A DNA stretch of 64,000 bases from a phage: sequence record PZ452611.1. One strand, given 5' to 3'. Of this stretch, positions 14,993 through 61,920 are shown in pieces; positions within the stretch are counted from its first letter, which is position 1, and each line of letters begins with the position of its first letter. A program made the position numbers and the translations under genes. A model generated the notes under the pieces. It was not told the DNA's origin, did no database searches, and worked only from the letters and a program-made list of their open reading frames with translations.

Positions 14993-15412
14993 ATGAACAT
15001 TAAATCTAATAATCCGGCATATAGCTTTGATAACGCTTTTTGTCACGGTCCGGCGGCGAAAGGATTCGAAATCGATGGTAAACTAATTATTGTCAATGTT
15101 GACGGGGAAGAGGTTGCAGTATATCCGGTGGCAGACGTTAAAAGCCGTTTGCAATGCCGCATGGATGTTACCGCCTACCAGCTTGATCCGGTCCGCATAG
15201 TTGCCCTGGTCCTGGAGGAAGAGATCAAAGCCATGCATCATAGCAATAAGTTTATCGGTGACGCGCAAGATAATATGAAGGTATGCCGCTATAAAGTTAA
15301 TGAAGTGCTTAAAGAATACGGCTTCAAAGATCTGATGATCAAGCGTGATGAAAAATTCCGTTATCGTAACGACCTGGCAAATCGAATCTATGAAATATAC
15401 GAATCATTATAA
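14993..15412 (+). CDS. hypothetical protein
   Basis: 139 aa, TAAGAGG RBS; last gene of + early block. Confidence 0.55.
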   Translation: MNIKSNNPAYSFDNAFCHGPAAKGFEIDGKLIIVNVDGEEVAVYPVADVKSRLQCRMDVTAYQLDPVRIVALVLEEEIKAMHHSNKFIGDAQDNMKVCRYKVNEVLKEYGFKDLMIKRDEKFRYRNDLANRIYEIYESL

Positions 15413-15429
15413 TTTCTTAACTAAACTAT

Positions 15430-15459
15430 CAGGGGCTTTAAAAGGCCCCTTTCTTTTGT
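15430..15459 (+). terminator. rho-independent terminator
   Basis: AGGGGC-ttttaaaa-GGCCCCT followed by TTCTTTTG. Confidence 0.7.
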
Positions 15460-16059
15460 CTGTATTTCTCCTACCACAAACGGCCCAGCCTGGCAAGTGG
15501 AATAATTGACTAGCCAGCAATTACCAACACTGTACAAATATACATATAAAATAACTATTGCATAATCTTTCATCTTGTGGTAGCAGGGCCATTTTTACAC
15601 GTTTTCCTTCCAAAATTGCACGTAATGCAGCTATTGCATAAAATTTAACCTGATGCACATCTTCAATAGCTTGTCAACAACTAAAAATCTTTATAAGTCA
15701 TACACTTACATAACCACAAAAGCGTGTTCTACGTGAAAAATCGAGTATAACTATAGCCGCCAGATCTCAGAATTTACGTACGCTCACCATTCTATAGTCT
15801 GCTAAGTATTTATTCCAACCATAGAATAACAGAATAGTCAATACCTGCATAAAATAATTATTCGTGTAAACTGCATAACATAAATCAGCCGGGGTGTCAA
15901 CATTTTTCGTAAACGGCTCGAAATTATCACTGTGAGCTATCATAAACAGAGAAATCTTTAGTCGTCTAATGTTTACTGTACGTTACTATACTAACTGGAA
16001 TCATTAGATGACTAATAAAAAGATAAGAAATCATTAACAATGCAATTGTTTTATTCATA

Positions 16060-16395
16060 ACAATAAGGCAACTATGCAAACGAATGGCATGGCGCGACGG
16101 AGTCGCGACATAATATAAAAGCAGTAACCATCACCCCCGTGATAGTTTGTCTGCAAACTATTAATCAGATCATAGTTGCCTTGTATTTAGTTAATCATGA
16201 CATAAACTCAGGCATAGCCTTCGTCTCGAGGATGTTAACAAGCAAGGCAACTATAGATCTTCTAATAGTTGCCCTGCTTTTATATTATGTCATAGAAACA
16301 CCCGAAGGGGTGACCAAAGGTCACCTGGCATAGCCAGTGAAATATTGTAAACAAGTTAATTATTATCATGCAAACGAATGGCATGGCTTATCATC
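16060..16395. repeat. repeat cluster: TGCAAACGAATGGCATGGC x2 and GGCAACTAT/ATAGTTGCC x4 in alternating orientation
   Basis: read directly; no coding support. Confidence 0.55.
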
Positions 16396-16560
16396 TCTGT
16401 GTAAATAGTTTGTTTGTAAACAGTTTATACGTGAACAGTTAGCTGTGTAAACTATCAGGCATGTAAGCTATTGAGCATGTAAACAGTAAAGGTCGTGAAC
16501 AGTAAGCGAGCGAATAGTAATGGCGTGAACAATGACAGCGTAAACAGTCAGGCATGTCAA
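16395..16560. repeat. iteron-like array, about 9 copies of GTRAAYAGT at 12-17 bp spacing
   Basis: GTAAATAGT, GTAAACAGT, GTGAACAGT, GTAAACTAT, GTAAACAGT, GTGAACAGT, GCGAATAGT, GTGAACAAT, GTAAACAGT. Confidence 0.6.
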
Positions 16561-18016
16561 TTATGTTCAGTGTGTCACCATTATGTCATATTGTGTCAGA
16601 CAAGTTTTTCTCCTCTTTGTCAAGTGCTGCATGAAAAATTTACAATCTGGTATGGTAGCATTTTTGCGGCCCTGTTTACATTCAGTACTGTATGTATAAG
16701 CCTTGTTGTGTGGGCGCTTAGACGTCTAGACGGTTGGAAGTCTGCAGGTCAATATCTAATCTATTGGTTGCTAACTATATCCCACACAAATAGTAAGAAA
16801 TGCAATTGTTATATGCGTAAACTGTAACTCATGTTATCAATCCCTGTATGGATCGCCAGTGGTGCGCATAATAGGTATTATGTTAAATTGCCAGTAATGA
16901 TAACTATTCTCACAGTGATAGGTATTCTCATTCAACCCCACAAGATAGGTTGCAAATGTTGTGCCACTGTGTGAACGGCCTCGCCTATTAATTTGCCTCA
17001 CTGCCTCGATATTTGAGAATTATTATAAGAATGAGAAGTATTCCCATTTCGTCCGCCTGGCAGCACTCCTGTAGGTCAGGTCAAAATCGGGAGAGAACTG
17101 GACCTGTTCAGATATTTCTGGCTGGCTCTTCAGGTCTGTGTGGGAAAAGCCGACCCCTCCGGCGGCGGGGAGGGGGTCAATTAAAAAATTTACGGGGCAT
17201 ATGAAGCGCTCTTCAGGTAAGGCATGTATTATGGGATGAAACCCTCTTCAGGAAATGATATTTGTGGGTGTGATATTTGCTGGAAAGCTAGATATGACTG
17301 GACTCCTGGCGGGGCAGGGGTAGTACAGACAGGGGAAATATGGGGGATGTAGTTGGGTAAATTGATCAGGCAGGTAGAGTATGGAATATGTTACGAGTAT
17401 GTTAAATATGGAGGGTGAATATCTGCAGGATTTGTGTGTAAAATCAAAGACTTAAGTGGTGTTGTGGTATTTTCTATAAATAATTCAAGTTTAATAGGTG
17501 ATATTTGTCCCTATCCACTTTGTGTGGTAAACAGATTCAGATGAGATTGGTTTACGAGTGTATACATAATATACAAATTAAAGATACAAGAAACCCCCCT
17601 CCCCCTTCGGCTACCATTCACCTTTTCCTCTGACTGGTACTTAAACACTTATTCAGACTCTTCAGGTTATCACCCATATATCATATGGCAGTGACTGGTG
17701 TCCTCCGGCCCCTCTTTCGTCACCCGTCCGCTTCGCCATGCTAATGCCATAGCCAATGGTTCGGTTGTTCACCCTGTTCACTCAGGTGTATCTCCATACC
17801 CCTTCAAACCGAAGAGAACAGAAAACCCGAATTACTCGGTAAAAGAAAAGAGAAGAACTTAATTTTATCAGGATAAGCAAGAATGTCAAGGCATGACTGC
17901 TCACTAAACAAGCAAACAGTCATGTGTGGGAGGTAAGTGATTGTGGTGGTAGGAAATTTAGTTGAAAGATGTGTTATAGGTGCTCCCAGCACTTTAGCCG
18001 GGTAGCTAATTGTGTG

Positions 18017-18298
18017 TCAGTCCAGCGGTTCATCCTCTACTTCACTGAAATCAATGTTCATGGTCTCTTCCCAACCATCGATCTCAGCACAAGAGTGAAG
18101 TTCTTTAGGGTTTACTCCCAAAGCCTCAGCAACAGAGTCTATATTTAACACCTCTGGCAGGTATGATTCATCGAATTCAAGGTAAATCAGGCCACGAGTG
18201 TTGTCAGCCCCACCAAATATTTCTATCTTCATGAAATCTCCTCTGGAAATGAGAGTGTGAACAGGGTTTATACGTTCCAATGCACTGGAATTATGCAC
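18017..18298 (-). CDS. acidic hypothetical protein
   Basis: 93 aa; first ORF of minus-strand block. Confidence 0.45.
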   Translation of the reverse strand: MHNSSALERINPVHTLISRGDFMKIEIFGGADNTRGLIYLEFDESYLPEVLNIDSVAEALGVNPKELHSCAEIDGWEETMNIDFSEVEDEPLD

Positions 18299-20715: not shown

Positions 20716-21003
20716 TCATAGTGCCTCTAAGATTTCATATCCTTCTGGTCGGAATACAAGCCACTCCGTGGCTCCGTTTGGTCGATACGCTTTATACAGA
20801 ACAACCTGATCTCGGCACATGCACATGGCTACATAGTTTTCATCCACACCTGCAGCCTGCATTGCATCTTCTTCTCCGGCAACTGCTTTGCTTACAACTT
20901 CCTTGGTAGGCAGGTGTGCGATCAGCTCGTCACCATCATTAATTCCAAAATGGCGGAGTTCTCCATTGGTATCTTTAATCTTAATCTTAACCAGATCTTT
21001 CAT
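20716..21003 (-). CDS. small acidic protein, paralog family B
   Basis: 95 aa; MK-I/V-K-I N-terminus shared with neighbours. Confidence 0.5.
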   Translation of the reverse strand: MKDLVKIKIKDTNGELRHFGINDGDELIAHLPTKEVVSKAVAGEEDAMQAAGVDENYVAMCMCRDQVVLYKAYRPNGATEWLVFRPEGYEILEAL

Positions 21004-21332
21004 TAGTCTTCCTCCAGGTTCAAAGGCCCTAAGATTTCATATGCCAGATTAGAAGTTACCAGAGGGTCTTCTGCATCTTTAGTATTATACCACCCGTGGA
21101 TAACTAGAGCTCCACCACGCTGCATGTCAAACTGGAACTGTTTTGCCATGTACTCATCAATCTCTAGGATTTCCATGAGGTATTTAATGTTTGGAAGATA
21201 CGCAGTCACTACAGTTCCTTCCACCAATCCTTCAGGCCAACCCACGTCCGGATGACAATCTGGAACTAGAGTGGTCAGCTTAATGGTGTACGCTTTTTCT
21301 GCACGAGCCTTCAGTAACGGGTCAATCTTCAT
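21003..21332 (-). CDS. hypothetical protein
   Basis: 109 aa; start abuts upstream stop. Confidence 0.5.
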   Translation of the reverse strand: MKIDPLLKARAEKAYTIKLTTLVPDCHPDVGWPEGLVEGTVVTAYLPNIKYLMEILEIDEYMAKQFQFDMQRGGALVIHGWYNTKDAEDPLVTSNLAYEILGPLNLEED

Positions 21333-21682
21333 TATTCGTCCTCCTCTTCGGTGCCTGCTTCCAGTAATAAGTTAAGAATATCTTCTGCACAAGGCTCATA
21401 GAACTCTTGACCTTCATTATCGATGATTTTGTAGTCATCCCCGCGAATAATCAGAGGATCACTCTCAAAATTATCGAGACCTTTAACAACGACAACACGA
21501 TCGATTGCCATCATTGTAAGAACTTTATCGACATCTTCCTCTGCTACACCATACTGCAGTAGAATGTCTTTGGTAGGAGGAACAGCATCTACCACAACAC
21601 CGTTACCAAAACCTTCCGGCAAGTTAGCTAAAATATCTTCCGGAACCACACTAACATCAAAACCAGTAATTTCTACTTTCAT
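21332..21682 (-). CDS. small acidic protein, paralog family B
   Basis: MKVEITG N-terminus, acidic C-terminus. Confidence 0.5.
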   Translation of the reverse strand: MKVEITGFDVSVVPEDILANLPEGFGNGVVVDAVPPTKDILLQYGVAEEDVDKVLTMMAIDRVVVVKGLDNFESDPLIIRGDDYKIIDNEGQEFYEPCAEDILNLLLEAGTEEEDE

Positions 21683-21943
21683 TTACAGCACCTCTTCGTC
21701 AACTACTTCATAAAAATGGCCTGGGATTGCAATAGCGTTCTCACCTTCACCTACAAACACAGTTCCGTCAAGAATCAACATCATAAGAATTTCTGGAATA
21801 TCCTCTTCCGGAACGTTGCCAAAACCTTTAATCAGTGTGTAGGTTGGAAGATTTACCTCTAAGATGTCACCATCTTTAGAGCGGAAATCAACACCATCCT
21901 GAATCTCTGCCATTTCAAGGTTTTTCAGTTTAATCTTCATCAA
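21683..21943 (-). CDS. small acidic protein, paralog family B
   Basis: MMKIKLK..., ends YEVVDEEVL. Confidence 0.5.
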   Translation of the reverse strand: MMKIKLKNLEMAEIQDGVDFRSKDGDILEVNLPTYTLIKGFGNVPEEDIPEILMMLILDGTVFVGEGENAIAIPGHFYEVVDEEVL

Positions 21944-22019
21944 TCAGTCTCCCGTCTTGTTAAGATGAAGGTATTATTTCACACAGGGTTGGTGTTGTCA
22001 ACACCTGTGTGCAAGAAAA

Positions 22020-22415
22020 TTACTGAAACAGTGCAGATAAATTACCTTCTGGTGGGAACTTATCTGCCAAAAACGGTGTTAGCACAGTAGCCTTCTGAAG
22101 ATCTGGGGTCCACTCGTTGTTCAGAACATCCCAGTAGTACGCAATGTTGCTGTGTGGGTGCCGCATTACGAACTTTTTCCCTTCGTAGTCATCTGAAACC
22201 TCTACAGAAGAAATAACAACAGAATCTTCAAGGGTTTCTTCATAGAAAGATCCGCCTTCAAATTTCCAACGAGATGCAAGAGCCCCTGCCTTGAACGCTG
22301 CAGATAACGGACTGTCGGCAAGAACATACATTTCTTGCACTCTGTCGCTGCGATCTTTGCTTCTTACGTTGTACACAGTATCTGAGCTATACTCAACACG
22401 GTATAGGCTTACCAT
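22020..22415 (-). CDS. hypothetical protein, paralog family C
   Basis: HPHSNIAYYWDVLNNEWTP matches HPDSRVKHYWNSRTKTWTP in ORF 24222-24620. Confidence 0.55.
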   Translation of the reverse strand: MVSLYRVEYSSDTVYNVRSKDRSDRVQEMYVLADSPLSAAFKAGALASRWKFEGGSFYEETLEDSVVISSVEVSDDYEGKKFVMRHPHSNIAYYWDVLNNEWTPDLQKATVLTPFLADKFPPEGNLSALFQ

Positions 22416-22774
22416 TACCGCACCTCCTCAATAACTTCCACATCTGAACCCACCACAAATGCAAAAGGACAGGTTTCATGAAAGACATCCGGATCGCCGC
22501 CAAGCTTGCTAACAATTTCTCCACCACTAATAAACACAAGCTCACCGATATTCATCAGATTGCTGAAATAGTATCCATAATGATTAAAGAATGCAGCAGG
22601 GTCAGGTAGACTAGTAGCCTCAAGTTCTACATCGGTTGAGATTACTTTCTTATCATAACCTCTCGCCTTCTGAGATGCAAGATCTGCAGAATCTTCAGGC
22701 GACCGGAGATGCACAGGAATTGTTTCACCAATAAAGCGTACTTTCATATTATCACCCAACAACCATAGCTTCAA
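22415..22774 (-). CDS. hypothetical protein, paralog family A-like
   Basis: 119 aa; MKVRFIG internal motif; acidic C-terminus VEVIEEV. Confidence 0.5.
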   Translation of the reverse strand: MKLWLLGDNMKVRFIGETIPVHLRSPEDSADLASQKARGYDKKVISTDVELEATSLPDPAAFFNHYGYYFSNLMNIGELVFISGGEIVSKLGGDPDVFHETCPFAFVVGSDVEVIEEVR

Positions 22775-23015
22775 AAGGGGTCATGAACGAATAAACGGCA
22801 TCATCATCTGCTTCAGGGAATGCTCCCAAAGACTTCATGTCCGAGCCCTTGACAAATACAAGGTTTTGATCAAAAGCTTCTTGGGGGTCAATCCGATACA
22901 TATTTCGTAGAATATCACCTACCTCTTCATCAAGAGGTGAGTATGCTGTGCACGTTTTTCCGATCAAGCTTTGAGAATCAGGGTATCCACCTGAAGTTTT
23001 AAAATAAACAATCAT
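22752..23015 (-). CDS. small protein, paralog family A
   Basis: GYPDSQSLIGKT...VFVKGSDMKSLGA resembles ORF 28532-28765. Confidence 0.5.
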   Translation of the reverse strand: MIVYFKTSGGYPDSQSLIGKTCTAYSPLDEEVGDILRNMYRIDPQEAFDQNLVFVKGSDMKSLGAFPEADDDAVYSFMTPFEAMVVG

Positions 23016-23106
23016 ATAGTATCACCTCTGGTAAGAGATTGGGATTCCTTTCCCACAAATAATTACAAATCTTCCTTATCGAGGAAGTATGCTAATCCAA
23101 GCAGGA

Positions 23107-23376
23107 TTATTCCTCTACAATCTCATACACATCAGGAGTTACAATCAACTCTTCTCCGTTACCCGGTGCAACAAACACCACCAAACCTTCAGGTGTGTGC
23201 TTTTTAGCCATCTCGATAACATCTTCGCGCAGAGCTGGCTCCATCAGATCAAAACCTTCACCCAGGGCATCACGAACCACCTTCATATAGTCCACTGGTT
23301 GTGCTTCAACAATCATGCCTTCAACCAGTCCACAGTTTTTGTCTGCCAGCTCAGTTTTGAATAATTTAATTTTCAT
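23107..23376 (-). CDS. small acidic protein, paralog family B
   Basis: MKIKLFK..., ends YEIVEE. Confidence 0.5.
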   Translation of the reverse strand: MKIKLFKTELADKNCGLVEGMIVEAQPVDYMKVVRDALGEGFDLMEPALREDVIEMAKKHTPEGLVVFVAPGNGEELIVTPDVYEIVEE

Positions 23377-23513
23377 TTAGAGGTCTCCTCAATTATTTGA
23401 TATTAATAGCCGTAACCTAACACATTAACTACAATTGCGATTGCAAACATAATTTCAAAGCATGCAATCTCTACATTTGGGACTAATTTCTTAATCACAC
23501 CCATTGTAGCACC

Positions 23514-23831
23514 TCATTCTCCAAAGTCAATCTTTACTTTGCCTTTCCCCTTACCTTTCTTTCCACCACATTTAGCCAGCTGACGTGCTGCAACATCTAC
23601 CATACGGTCAGTTGCCTCGTAAGCATCACTGCCTTTAGCTTTGGCAATAACTTCTTTTCCAGAATTGTCAAAAATGAACGCCATAACTTCCTGGTGATCA
23701 TTTTCAACTTTTACACTCACACGTGCATAGTTGGCAGAGGGGTGCAAACGCTCCAGCTTAGACATTTTGTGGGAAATGAAAGACACCATACCTTCAGTGA
23801 TTTCTACGTTGCCAGTGATTTCAATTTGCAT
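23514..23831 (-). CDS. hpf: ribosome hibernation promoting factor / RaiA-like protein
   Basis: MQIEITGNVEITEG...KLERL...VSVKVEN...AKAKGSDAYEATDRMVDVAARQL aligns by eye with E. coli HPF recalled from memory (MQLNITGNNVEITEA...ARQL); Lys/Gly-rich tail. Confidence 0.7.
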   Translation of the reverse strand: MQIEITGNVEITEGMVSFISHKMSKLERLHPSANYARVSVKVENDHQEVMAFIFDNSGKEVIAKAKGSDAYEATDRMVDVAARQLAKCGGKKGKGKGKVKIDFGE

Positions 23832-23913
23832 AACGTGTTCCTTTTAAAGAAGAGGGAACCAAACCCTCTTTGAAAACAATGATACTAAATCTGAAGCGTT
23901 GTGTCAACAGTTT

Positions 23914-24204
23914 TTACAGCTTGTTGTCGATAGTTTTTAAAATATCTACAGCAAGATCTGCCATTTTTCGAACATACTCTGCAAACTCAACAGGATCCTT
24001 GATCAAAGAATTCACAGGGTCGTACCCTAGAGCGTTCAAAATGGCTGCAGCATCTACAACCTTCTCATCATTTGCGAAGATCTCTCCGTCAAACTTGTAG
24101 GTCCATTTTGAGTCAACCTTAGCAGAGCAGGGTTTGTCCATGCTTGTTACACCATCGTCTTTAAACTCTCCTGCGTTATCAATATTCAGAACTAAATCCA
24201 TCAT
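23914..24204 (-). CDS. hypothetical protein
   Basis: 96 aa ORF. Confidence 0.45.
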   Translation of the reverse strand: MMDLVLNIDNAGEFKDDGVTSMDKPCSAKVDSKWTYKFDGEIFANDEKVVDAAAILNALGYDPVNSLIKDPVEFAEYVRKMADLAVDILKTIDNKL

Positions 24205-24221
24205 AGTGGTACCTCACTGTT

Positions 24222-24620
24222 TCAGTTTAGCTTTTCTTCAACAACCCCATAGCTTGGGACAGAATCAAGAGCTTTCTGGTTTAAAAGTGGTGTAGCAGAA
24301 TCTGCAAACGGTGTCCAAGTTTTTGTTCTGGAATTCCAGTAATGCTTCACTCTGGAATCTGGATGCACTATAACAAAAACTTTTTCACTTGTCAACACAT
24401 TAATTTCTTCTACACCCTTGCTGATAATTTCTCCGTCATAGCCCCCAGTCTGGTATCCTTCGTACCAGGTTCTTGCATAGGCATAGCCAGCCTGCCAGCA
24501 TGCAGCCTCCTCCGAGGTGGAGATTACGTAGAAGTCCTTCTCAAATTCCGGAATACGCCCTTGCTTTACGCTCCAAGCTCCGCGAATTTTCATTGTAACT
24601 TTGAACAGTTTATTTTTCAC
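24222..24620 (-). CDS. hypothetical protein, paralog family C
   Basis: paralog of 22020-22415. Confidence 0.55.
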   Translation of the reverse strand: MKNKLFKVTMKIRGAWSVKQGRIPEFEKDFYVISTSEEAACWQAGYAYARTWYEGYQTGGYDGEIISKGVEEINVLTSEKVFVIVHPDSRVKHYWNSRTKTWTPFADSATPLLNQKALDSVPSYGVVEEKLN

Positions 24621-24632
24621 AACGGTTACCCA

Positions 24633-24887
24633 TCACAGCTCTGCAATATCTGCATCTGACCCTACCCCAAAGGCATAATAGGACTCTTCCCCGAAATAAT
24701 ATTCAGGTGCACCAGCGGTGATCAGGTCTGATCCTAAGATAAACACCACGTTGTGGCCTACATAACTGTGATGTTGCCGCACAGGATCATCCCACGGCAA
24801 CCCTTCAAAGTATACCGCAGGAACGACCTTTCCCTTCAGGAAGGATTGTCCCAAGTAGACGTTAGAATCAAGAATTTTAACCTTCAT
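24633..24887 (-). CDS. small protein, paralog family A
   Basis: MKVKILDSNVYLGQ...GKVV...GSDLITAGAP. Confidence 0.55.
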   Translation of the reverse strand: MKVKILDSNVYLGQSFLKGKVVPAVYFEGLPWDDPVRQHHSYVGHNVVFILGSDLITAGAPEYYFGEESYYAFGVGSDADIAEL

Positions 24888-25104
24888 GATCGTCCTCCAC
24901 TACCTCTACATCCTCGCCTAGGGCAAAGTTGTAGGTCCACTGACTGTCAAAGCAGTCCTGAGGTGCACCAGCGGCAATAAGATCTGCTCCTTTTATTTTT
25001 AAAAGGTCAGGGTAATCTTCGTTAGGGACAGCAGTAAACACTTTTCCTACTAAAGGCTCCTGACCAATATAGAAGCTTGAATCTAAAACTTTAACTTTCA
25101 TCAA
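24877..25104 (-). CDS. small protein, paralog family A
   Basis: MMKVKVLDSSFYIGQ...GKVF...GADLIAAGAP. Confidence 0.55.
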   Translation of the reverse strand: MMKVKVLDSSFYIGQEPLVGKVFTAVPNEDYPDLLKIKGADLIAAGAPQDCFDSQWTYNFALGEDVEVVEDDHEG

Positions 25105-59239: not shown

Positions 59240-59314
59240 GCCCTGTTAGCTTAGTGGATAAAGCAGCGGCCTTCTAAGCCGTTGACACTGGTTCGAGTCC
59301 AGTACGGGGTGCCA
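59240..59314 (+). tRNA. tRNA-Arg (anticodon TCT)
   Basis: hand-folded cloverleaf: 7 bp acceptor with two G-U pairs, anticodon loop CTTCTAA, T-loop TTCGAGT, CCA encoded. Confidence 0.75.
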
Positions 59315-59318
59315 AATT

Positions 59319-59405
59319 GGGGAGTTATCCCGTAGAGGTAGCGGTGTAGACTGTAAATCTATTGTCATTGCGACTCGGGTGGTTCGACTCCACCACTCCC
59401 CACCA
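59319..59405 (+). tRNA. tRNA-Tyr (anticodon GTA)
   Basis: perfect 7 bp acceptor GGGGAGT/ACTCCCC, loop CTGTAAA, long variable arm, T-loop TTCGACT, CCA. Confidence 0.8.
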
Positions 59406-59519
59406 AATTTATATTTTTAGATGCATAAATAATACAGATAATGGCATTGATATTTATCGTCGTTTATACTAGTCACTAACTGCTCGAAAATCAGTGTCAT
59501 TATCAGTATAATTTATAAA

Positions 59520-59610
59520 GGAGGGTAGGGAGCAATGGTGCTCAAGCGGTCTTGAAAACCGTCCCGTTGAGGATGACTCGATGATGGTTCGATTCCATTA
59601 CTCTCCGCCA
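59520..59610 (+). tRNA. tRNA-Ser (anticodon TGA)
   Basis: acceptor GGAGGGT/ACTCTCC, loop CTTGAAA, long variable arm, T-loop TTCGATT, CCA. Confidence 0.75.
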
Positions 59611-59708
59611 CATTGTTGACCTTGTAATTAAGCGAAAGCCGGAAGCAGAACCGGATTATCAAATGTTACAGTCGTCATCGCCGACTAGCAACATGGTCAA
59701 CATACTGA

Positions 59709-59805
59709 GCTAGGTAAGCCCTTTGGCAAGGGCGAGGATTTTTAATCCTGAAAATAGACGAGGTAGTCGTTGAATACATAGGTGGTTCGATTCCATCACC
59801 TAGCA
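59709..59805 (+). tRNA. aberrant tRNA-like element (possible tRNA-Lys TTT-like with about 30 nt extra arm)
   Basis: perfect acceptor GCTAGGT/ACCTAGC, canonical D-arm and T-arm (GGTGGTTCGATTCCATC), anticodon-like loop TTTTTAA, but 30 nt insertion between anticodon and T arms. Confidence 0.35.
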
Positions 59806-59812
59806 CCTTTTT

Positions 59813-59888
59813 GCTGATGTAGCACAATCGGTAGTGCAATTGATTTGTAATCAATAGGTTGTAGGTTCAAGTCCTGCCATCAGCACCA
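59813..59888 (+). tRNA. tRNA-Thr (anticodon TGT)
   Basis: acceptor GCTGATG/CATCAGC, loop TTTGTAA, T-loop TTCAAGT, CCA. Confidence 0.8.
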
Positions 59889-59889
59889 A

Positions 59890-59964
59890 GGCCCTGTAGC
59901 TGGAAGGTTCAAGCAAGCGACTCATAATCGCCAGACGGTGGTTCAATTCCACCCAGGGCCACCA
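59890..59964 (+). tRNA. tRNA-Met (anticodon CAT; Ile-lysidine type not excluded)
   Basis: acceptor GGCCCTG/CAGGGCC, loop CTCATAA, T-loop TTCAATT, CCA. Confidence 0.75.
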
Positions 59965-59975
59965 AATAGTAAATA

Positions 59976-60052
59976 CTCCGCGTAGCTCAGCTTGGTAGAG
60001 CGCCTGATTTGGGATCAGGAGGTCGAGTGTTCGAATCACTCCGTGGAGACCA
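59976..60052 (+). tRNA. tRNA-Pro (anticodon TGG)
   Basis: C1-G72 acceptor, D-arm GCTCAGCTTGGTAGAGC, loop TTTGGGA, T-loop TTCGAAT, CCA. Confidence 0.8.
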
Positions 60053-61156: not shown

Positions 61157-61584
61157 TGTCTAAGATTTACGGACCGTGTTCTGAAAAGCAGAAGATGATC
61201 CTCGAAAACGATGCAGATATCTTGGTAATCGGCGGTGCAGCAGGGTCTGGCAAGTCGTTCCTCTTGCAGTTGATGCCACTTAAAATTATTGATGACCCCC
61301 ACAGCTCTGTGGTTATGTTCCGAAGAACAACCCCACAGTTGGAAGGTGAGGGTGGGCTATGGCCTAAAGCAGTAGCTATTTATAGTGATCTGCCTGAAAA
61401 CATTAAGCCAAAGTTTAGAGAGAAGGATCATAAGTTCATTTTTCCACGGTTTGATCCGAACACTGGCAAGTGGGATAGAAGCAAAAAGGGAGCTGTTGTA
61501 AAATACTGCCACATGGAGTATGTACAAGATAAGCTTAACCATCAGGGGCTTGAGTACACCATGGTTTGCTTCGATGAGGGTTAA
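61156..61584 (+). CDS. terminase large subunit, exon 1 (ATPase N-terminus)
   Basis: Walker A GGAAGSGKS, Walker B-like CFDE; frame closes at TAA inside putative intron. Confidence 0.6.
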   Translation: MSKIYGPCSEKQKMILENDADILVIGGAAGSGKSFLLQLMPLKIIDDPHSSVVMFRRTTPQLEGEGGLWPKAVAIYSDLPENIKPKFREKDHKFIFPRFDPNTGKWDRSKKGAVVKYCHMEYVQDKLNHQGLEYTMVCFDEG

Positions 61585-61587
61585 TTT

Positions 61588-61920
61588 GTAGCTCTCGTAA
61601 AACCTCCCTAATTGCGGGGAAATCTTTATTATTGACACCACCAACCTGTTATGGTAACATAATAGAGGCTTCGAAGAGAGATCGAAGGTATGGTAACAGT
61701 GTGTTAATTTAGATAATCCGCAGCGAAGCATCCGAGAGGATGAACGTTCAACGACTAGTCGAAAGACGTAGAATCAAGCGATTCGAAACGGGAGGGTAAG
61801 CGATTGTTGTCGCTTATAAGATATAGTCTGGTCTGCATGGAGACATGCAGCTGCCTGAGAATGGCGGGGCAAGACTAGCGACCTTGCCTGAACATAAACG
61901 ACACAATTCGAATGGGAGCA
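61588..61920 (+). mobile_element. group-I-like intron 1 (no ORF), boundaries approximate
   Basis: ORF-free insert between terminase frames; shares AATTGCGGGGAAATC and ATAGTCTGGTCTGCATGGAGACATGCAGC blocks with second insert. Confidence 0.5.

Follow-up and report, generated by a model that had tools for sequence, protein, structure and literature searches.

Two Escherichia coli proteins are the described systems with which the gene treated here is best compared, namely the short factor HPF (YhbH; PDB 2rql, 4v8h, 6h4n), which consists of a single S30AE domain, and RaiA (YfiA, protein Y; PDB 4v8i, 1n3g), which has the same fold and carries an extended, flexible tail that covers the site of RMF on the ribosome and blocks dimerisation (PMC13152769; bioRxiv 10.1101/2025.10.07.680626). 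Phages also encode members of this family. Mizuno et al. 2019 (Nat Commun 10:752, PMC6375957) included ABI79209 as a phage-encoded HPF, reported it together with the proteins of phages GAP32 and PBECO4, and grouped the GAP32 protein with those of Firmicutes. ABI79209 is the product of open reading frame 144 (ORF144) of Escherichia phage rV5, and the subject of this report is that gene as found in a phage DNA of 64,000 nucleotides (sequence record PZ452611.1; "the window" hereafter means this whole stretch), which is the DNA of rV5 itself (DQ832317 / NC_011041, 100% identity, opposite orientation).

The S30AE proteins of Cronobacter phage GAP32 and Escherichia phage PBECO4, both large myoviruses, belong to the same family as the rV5 protein, but they are only 17-22% identical to it in a structure-based alignment and fall into a different PHROG (phrog_8990), and are therefore regarded as independent acquisitions. 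A phage protein that acts on the host ribosome is gp014 of the jumbo phage PhiKZ, which is made immediately on infection and binds the host ribosome directly (Gerovac et al. 2024, PMC10914614). It is unrelated to the rV5 protein: it clamps 5S rRNA on the central protuberance of the 50S subunit, remains on translating ribosomes and is not a blocker of the decoding channel (PMC10914614). Its binding is experimentally proven, and it serves as a functional analogy for the proposal made below.

ORF144 has gone by several names. It is a "sigma 54 modulation factor" in GenBank and a "ribosome-associated translation inhibitor RaiA" in RefSeq, and in relatives from typing-phage sets and the BASEL collection the gene is named "hpf" or "ribosome hibernation factor"; several Vequintavirus records wrongly call the HPF homologue "ATP-dependent protease La type I". 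The gene, its family and the idea that its product competes with a cellular factor are thus already known from GenBank, RefSeq and PMC6375957, and the original prediction of an HPF/RaiA-like phage protein at this locus, which had been made from the sequence without database searches, is a correct rediscovery of an annotated and published gene. What is added here is that the published "no binding" result for this protein (PMC6375957) lacks a valid positive control, and that the gene belongs to an old and strongly constrained lineage. We found no later literature on a phage HPF; the paper describing the rV5 genome is silent on the gene, and the paper on the LL12 Keio screen mentions neither hpf, rmf and raiA nor ribosomes.

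Family membership, fold and age of the ORF144 protein

The coding sequence runs from 23514 to 23831 on the minus strand (ATG start, 105 codons, TGA stop), is 100% identical to DQ832317 98197-98514 and encodes a product of 105 amino acids, MQIEITGNVEITEGMVSFISHKMSKLERLHPSANYARVSVKVENDHQEVMAFIFDNSGKEVIAKAKGSDAYEATDRMVDVAARQLAKCGGKKGKGKGKVKIDFGE. The original prediction had placed it at exactly these coordinates, giving no strand, and had aligned it by eye with E. coli HPF along its length. All of the motifs quoted in support (MQIEITGNVEITE, KLE, VKVE, G-D-Y-A-D and ARQL) are found in the product, and in a HMMER comparison with all PDB sequences phage residues 1-89 align to residues 1-89 of E. 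coli HPF with E = 5e-12, far beyond chance. The Lys/Gly-rich tail said to follow the aligned part, GGKKGKGKGKVKIDFGE, is real as well, with a net charge of +4.

The suggested search with hidden Markov models of the S30AE family bore out the assignment. Pfam PF02482 (Ribosomal_S30AE) matched residues 3-88 on its 88-position profile with 48.3 bits (E = 1.8e-12; gathering score 23.7 bits), NCBIfam TIGR00741 (HPF/YfiA family) gave 45.9 bits against a cut-off of 40.9, and no second Pfam domain besides S30AE was found at E <= 10. The core-domain segment delimited by the Pfam match, together with the AlphaFold2 model and the Foldseek matches, occupies 23568..23831 (minus strand). The AlphaFold2 model, for which an alignment of 146 sequences was the input, has a mean predicted local distance difference test score (pLDDT) of 84.8, with block means of 82-98 for residues 1-90, and shows strands at residues 2-7, 33-43, 46-55 and 60-67 and helices at 13-29 and 70-89 (order E-H-E-E-E-H). 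When the model was compared with the PDB by Foldseek, the top 36 of 36 matches were HPF, RaiA or pY structures; at their head were V. cholerae HPF (4hei; template modelling (TM) score 0.93, root-mean-square deviation (rmsd) 1.0 Å) and E. coli HPF, and superposition on these two gave TM scores of 0.85-0.93. E. coli HPF has the same single S30AE topology, can be aligned with the phage protein from end to end and has a core of similar size and charge. Long HPFs, the self-dimerising Gram-positive type, carry a C-terminal dimerisation domain behind a linker and total about 180-190 amino acids, and the phage protein, at 105 amino acids, is not of that kind.

The phage protein shares 42-43% of its residues with E. 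coli HPF (43% in a MAFFT alignment) and 22% with RaiA, and it scored 17.6 bits with the RaiA equivalog model NF007654 (cut-off 158 bits). Sequence comparison thus places it closer to HPF than to RaiA and as an orthologue of neither. That the protein belongs to the S30AE / HPF-RaiA family is practically certain, and we regard it as a structurally intact, diverged homologue of the short, gammaproteobacterial type of HPF.

Relatives of the protein are abundant within one group of phages and scarce outside it. A tblastn search of a phage collection found the gene in 119 records, nearly all with at least 95% protein identity; one "Salmonella" match among them was set aside as a bacterial contig with the host's own gene rather than a phage copy. 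Other Vequintavirinae genera and the phi92 and phAPEC8 groups gave no tblastn match. A word-indexed protein search reached no further than the phage cluster (163 member sequences) and one variant, P0004, of about 64% identity, and when 1.84 billion cluster representatives were scanned exhaustively with HMMER, P0004 (about 64-65%) was again the sole close relative, the other true family members having at most 45% identity and E values of at least 2.5e-7. The second-ranked hit of that scan, P0126 (1160 amino acids, eight matching stretches), was discarded as an artefact of PPC-domain repeats. The contigs that carry P0004 reach 126-137 kb, and it lies there in a block colinear with rV5, where homologues of ORF138-152 (28-84% identity) stand in unchanged order and P0004 itself lies between the counterparts of ORF143 and ORF146. 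In PHROGs the rV5-type proteins form a separate family, phrog_12469, listed as of unknown function.

Among seven Vequintavirus genomes the ratio of non-synonymous to synonymous differences (pN/pS) of the gene is 0.03-0.07, with pS of up to 0.41, and against the syntenic sister lineage (L002) pS reaches 0.79, which is saturated, with a core pN of 0.22. These comparisons point to an old, isolated phage lineage under strong purifying selection. With constraint this strong and synonymous sites saturated against the sister lineage, the gene is no passenger and was not picked up recently, and this result qualifies the reading of Mizuno et al. 2019 (PMC6375957), in which similarity to cellular HPF was taken as a sign of relatively recent transfer.

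Two side observations were made in the same searches. Phages slur16 and V18 (records L008 and L009, positions 151-471) carry a variant of 106 amino acids with GNNVEIT in place of GNVEIT, which regains a residue that is missing in rV5 relative to E. coli HPF. Eighteen records labelled "Campylobacter phage" match rV5-like coliphage DNA here, all with an HPF gene of at least 95% protein identity; they include MG0656xx, OR062525/28/30 and MT884008-11 (about 97.5-98% identical) and are probably mislabelled or contaminant.

Contact residues and C-terminal tail

The residues by which HPF contacts the ribosome were taken from a structural study of Gram-negative hibernating ribosomes (bioRxiv 10.1101/2025.10.07.680626). 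Five of the eleven (K26, E60, R83, K87 and K91) are identical in the phage protein and in HPF, and two further changes, Q29R and H62I, are conservative. In the basic track along helix alpha-2 (K80, R83, K87, K89 and K91) three of five residues are kept; K80 and K89 are missing from both phage lineages. E60 is kept in rV5 and replaced by Val in the sister lineage. The core carries a net charge of -2, as does that of E. coli HPF.

The tail (residues 89-105, 23517..23567, minus strand) is the clearest innovation relative to the host factors. It extends 18 residues past the position of K87 in rV5 and 16 in the sister lineage. Among bacterial proteins the median is 8 residues for the HPF type, with exactly 8 in 109 of 139, and 23 for the RaiA type. 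The phage protein therefore departs from the short tail of gammaproteobacterial HPF (about 8 residues past K87), which is compatible with RMF. The E. coli HPF tail is of this short kind, whereas that of the phage is long and rich in Gly and Lys, and it is predicted to be disordered (pLDDT below 50 for residues 91-105). It is nevertheless well kept: in the seven Vequintavirus genomes it is invariant up to F103, codons 94, 95, 97 and 100 varying only synonymously, and the two phage lineages share a K-[IW]-D-[FY] motif at its end. Its extra lysines might substitute for K80 and K89.

RaiA has the same fold as the phage protein and the same expected binding site, and its tail is comparable in length to those of the phage lineages (16-18 residues). 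The analogy between the two tails extends to length only, because their charges are opposite: +4 in rV5 and +3 in the sister lineage, -3 in E. coli RaiA, which ends in an acidic NFVEEVEEE motif, an acidic aromatic ending that the phage tail lacks. By analogy of fold and extended tail, the phage protein may work most nearly as RaiA does, while by sequence it descends from the short-HPF branch.

Proposed ribosome binding and competition, and the alternatives

The explanation that we favour overall, at about even odds (a probability near 0.5), is that the phage protein binds in the decoding channel of host ribosomes and competes there with the host hibernation factors. A Vequintavirus ancestor would have captured a gene of the short-HPF type long ago. 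The core would dock as HPF and RaiA do, between the head and the body of the 30S subunit in vacant host ribosomes and over the A site and the P site, and that it binds the ribosome at all we consider likely. The flexible, polybasic tail would head for the 3' end of 16S rRNA and the RMF site, as does the RaiA tail, so that the protein would compete with host HPF, RaiA and RMF, 100S dimers would be disfavoured, and ribosomes would stay as undimerised 70S particles that are readily reactivated; this direction of the effect is proposed only tentatively. A similar thought is found in PMC6375957, where it was speculated that viral HPF may compete with its cellular homologue and so prevent ribosome dimerisation. 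Binding would be weaker and more salt-sensitive than that of the host factors, because K80 and K89 are missing.

A more specific and decidedly speculative form of this proposal, to which we give a low probability, is that the protein is an anti-hibernation decoy: a weak binder, expressed early and at a high level, that drives or keeps the tightly bound RaiA, HPF and RMF off dormant ribosomes and then gives way readily to initiation factors, so that translation in a stationary or stressed host is woken for the benefit of the phage. If this were true, its signatures would be the loss of K80 and K89, the conservation of the polybasic tail and the absence of RaiA from the ribosomes of cells that express the protein. 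The differences from host HPF, namely the two lost lysines and the long basic tail, translate into concrete mutants and assays for function. Should the protein act on the ribosomes of the host, it would offer a compact example of how a virus can turn a dormancy factor of its host to controlling the ribosome pool, and it would bear on the lytic phages of the rV5 group, widely used in biocontrol of E. coli O157 and in therapy, when they face slow-growing or stationary hosts.

Several observations weigh against decoding-channel binding and competition. In the only experiment on this protein, with E. coli NM522 as host and expression driven from pBAD24, mass spectrometry detected the phage HPF in the crude extract and not in purified 70S or 100S ribosomes, and there was no discernible change in 100S particles (PMC6375957). 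In the sequence, T53 and H55 are both Phe in the phage protein; K80, a position at which 233 of 237 bacterial HPF- and RaiA-type proteins have Lys, is Val in rV5 and Thr in the sister lineage; and K89, Lys in 231 of the 237, is Gly or Ser in the phages. The score with the HPF equivalog model NF007780 is 55.8 bits, well under its cut-off of 125 bits, and the tail is strongly basic where RaiA tails are acidic overall. The hint of RaiA displacement described below comes from one sample per condition, near the detection limit of semi-quantitative mass spectrometry, and no data on expression timing, a knockout phenotype or the protein in infected cells were found for this gene in the literature.

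The experiment is less damaging than it seems. The ribosomes came from cells harvested at OD600 = 1 and, before the gradient, were spun down over 20 h through a sucrose cushion with 500 mM NH4Cl (PMC6375957). According to the supplementary tables of that paper, the crude extract of the cells expressing phage HPF contained RMF, HPF and RaiA (scores 217, 210 and 188) along with the phage protein (Suppl. Data 5), and all four were absent from the ribosomes purified from these cells, in a complete list of 71 proteins (Suppl. Data 4). The negative result on binding is uninformative because the preparation had also lost host HPF and RMF. A test of ribosome association and of 100S particles had been proposed with the original prediction; it was thus already in print, and its outcome, no association and unchanged 100S, does not refute the prediction for the same reason. 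RMF and HPF were likewise absent from the ribosomes of cells expressing viral bS21 (Suppl. Data 2) or viral bL12 (Suppl. Data 3), and RaiA was present in both (scores 22.6 and 137.2). RaiA thus withstood the 500 mM NH4Cl wash in two preparations and the phage HPF did not, and host RaiA was found on ribosomes in two of two preparations made without phage HPF and in none of the one made with it (Suppl. Data 2-5). Its absence fits competition for a shared site, and we treat it as a weak hint and a lead only.

Nor can the substitutions K80V, H55F and T53F be taken as proof of lost binding, a reading that we rejected: in a wider alignment Phe at H55 occurs in four bacterial members, and of 34 diverse HPF-like members 3 carry Val or Thr at K80. 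The contact changes are not decisive, since a few bacterial members share them and the charge of the core is unchanged; as far as sequence can suggest, the losses of K80 and K89 are notable without settling the matter.

The same observations bear on two other accounts of what the protein does. It might have kept the fold and left the ribosome, no longer binding the decoding channel and acting on a non-ribosomal target. A changed target is made possible by H55F and T53F together with the failure to reach the HPF ortholog model, and it would agree with the loss of K80 and K89, with scores under the equivalog cut-offs and a PHROGs family of its own, with the isolation of the lineage (at most 45% identity outside the phage clade among the 1.84 billion representatives) and with the failure to detect the protein in purified 70S and 100S ribosomes. 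The last of these comes from an experiment without a working positive control, the substitutions at K80 and H55 are seen in a few bacterial members, seven of the eleven contact positions are identical or conservatively changed at an unchanged core charge, and the model matches ribosome-bound HPF at about 1 Å rmsd; we judge this account to be rather improbable. Alternatively, the protein might act exactly as HPF does, driving 70S ribosomes with host RMF into inactive 100S particles, whether for shut-off of host translation or for parking ribosomes and protecting them from nucleases in starved cells. Its nearest characterised relatives are indeed short HPFs (43% against 22% identity, 55.8 against 17.6 bits), its top structural matches are the HPFs of V. 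cholerae and E. coli, and the HPF-specific E60 is present in rV5. However, the sister lineage has Val in place of E60, 100S particles were unchanged on expression in E. coli (PMC6375957), the tail is twice the 8 residues found in 109 of 139 HPF-type proteins and long RaiA tails block RMF, and wholesale silencing of ribosomes, driven by an early promoter, would hurt translation of the phage too. For either of these purposes, canonical action seems to us unlikely.

Two further accounts can be dealt with more briefly. That the gene is a functionless passenger, a recently captured fragment of host hpf, would follow the recent-transfer view of Mizuno et al. (PMC6375957), but the protein is only 43% identical to host HPF and has no close bacterial relative, about 119 genomes carry the gene at the low pN/pS given above, the protein is still 64% identical to that of the syntenic sister lineage at saturated synonymous sites, and the gene has its own conserved promoter. 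The selection analysis effectively refutes this account, to which we give hardly any weight. The other is suggested by the GenBank product name, that is, a modulator of sigma-54-dependent transcription. The term "sigma 54 modulation" goes back to the fact that hpf lies within the rpoN operon. It survives as the historical family name (Pfam "Sigma 54 modulation protein"), and the GenBank note cites Klebsiella P17161; in addition, one perfect match to the -24/-12 consensus, TGGCACAACATTTGCA, lies in the window at 16951-16966 (minus strand), within a region free of genes. Against this, every structure solved for the family shows either a ribosome complex or a protein that binds ribosomes, and the consensus is not enriched in the window (3 sites against 2.5 expected at one mismatch). 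For a perfect site the expectation is 0.10, and 8 of 100 shuffled sequences held at least one, so that the match is probably coincidental; the sigma-54 link was rejected on the lack of enrichment and is, in our view, extremely improbable.

Expression signals and other features of the window

Upstream of ORF144 there is a putative sigma-70-type promoter, P144 (TTGACA-17 nt-TATCAT; 23879..23907, minus strand), 48 nt 5' of the ATG. It matches 11 of 12 consensus positions in a consensus scan and is already carried as a promoter annotation in DQ832317. Across the seven Vequintavirus genomes the -35 element is invariant and the -10 element is TATCAT or TATTAT, and the -35 element is kept in the diverged sister lineage as well. 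A Shine-Dalgarno-like AAGGA, read from the sequence, lies 7 nt 5' of the ATG (23839..23843, minus strand), and phage Mangalyan has an annotated ribosome-binding site at the equivalent position. Because a near-consensus sigma-70 promoter suits unmodified host RNA polymerase, ORF144 is probably transcribed early by that enzyme; no Vequintavirus transcriptome or data on the timing of ORF144 expression were found in the literature. A hairpin with a 7-bp stem in the 5' untranslated region (AAGAGGG-loop-CCCUCUU; 23850..23870, minus strand; minimum free energy -9.9 kcal/mol) is of doubtful significance, being partly conserved in the genus and missing from the sister lineage, and was dropped as a regulatory element (z = -0.71 against shuffles).

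In E. coli hpf is part of the rpoN operon, whereas the phage gene sits behind its sigma-70-type promoter in a long series of small genes that share one orientation and have no known function. The original prediction had spoken of a block of small early or middle genes; the run of small genes is there, and the early or middle timing is supported only indirectly, through the conserved promoter. Since the neighbours are of unknown function and the flanking small proteins have no Pfam match, the context gives no functional clue. The block from 20716 to 25104 (minus strand) holds paralogues: ORF142 (24222-24620) and ORF149 (22020-22415) both belong to phrog_7379, ORF141 (24633-24887) and ORF147 (22752-23015) both to phrog_5009, and ORF140 resembles ORF141. 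Beginning 9 nt after the hpf stop is ORF145 (23403-23504, minus strand), a hydrophobic ORF of 33 amino acids that is annotated and conserved in Vequintavirus (phrog_15151); the sister lineage has a non-coding gap of 83 nt instead.

Elsewhere in the window, 2.6 kb without annotated genes (15413-18016) lie between the convergent ORF164 (14993-15412, plus strand) and ORF163 (18017-18298, minus strand). This region contains iteron-like GTAAAC repeats with a spacing of 16 nt (16431, 16447 and 16463), further copies at 16540 and 16817, an exact direct repeat of 20 nt (16074 and 16368) and a perfect inverted repeat of 18 nt (16107-16124 / 16274-16291), features that make it a candidate replication origin or regulatory region. 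A tRNA cluster at 59240-60052 (plus strand) encodes Arg-TCT, Tyr-GTA, Ser-TGA, Thr-TGT, Met-CAT and Pro-TGG. At 59709-59807 there is an odd tRNA-like gene of 99 nt, to which ARAGORN assigns no amino acid (anticodon "atcc") and whose score with the Rfam tRNA model is only 35.5 bits. At 61572-61850 on the plus strand lies a group I intron that matches Rfam RF00028 over its full length (84.9 bits; model positions 1-253 of 253).

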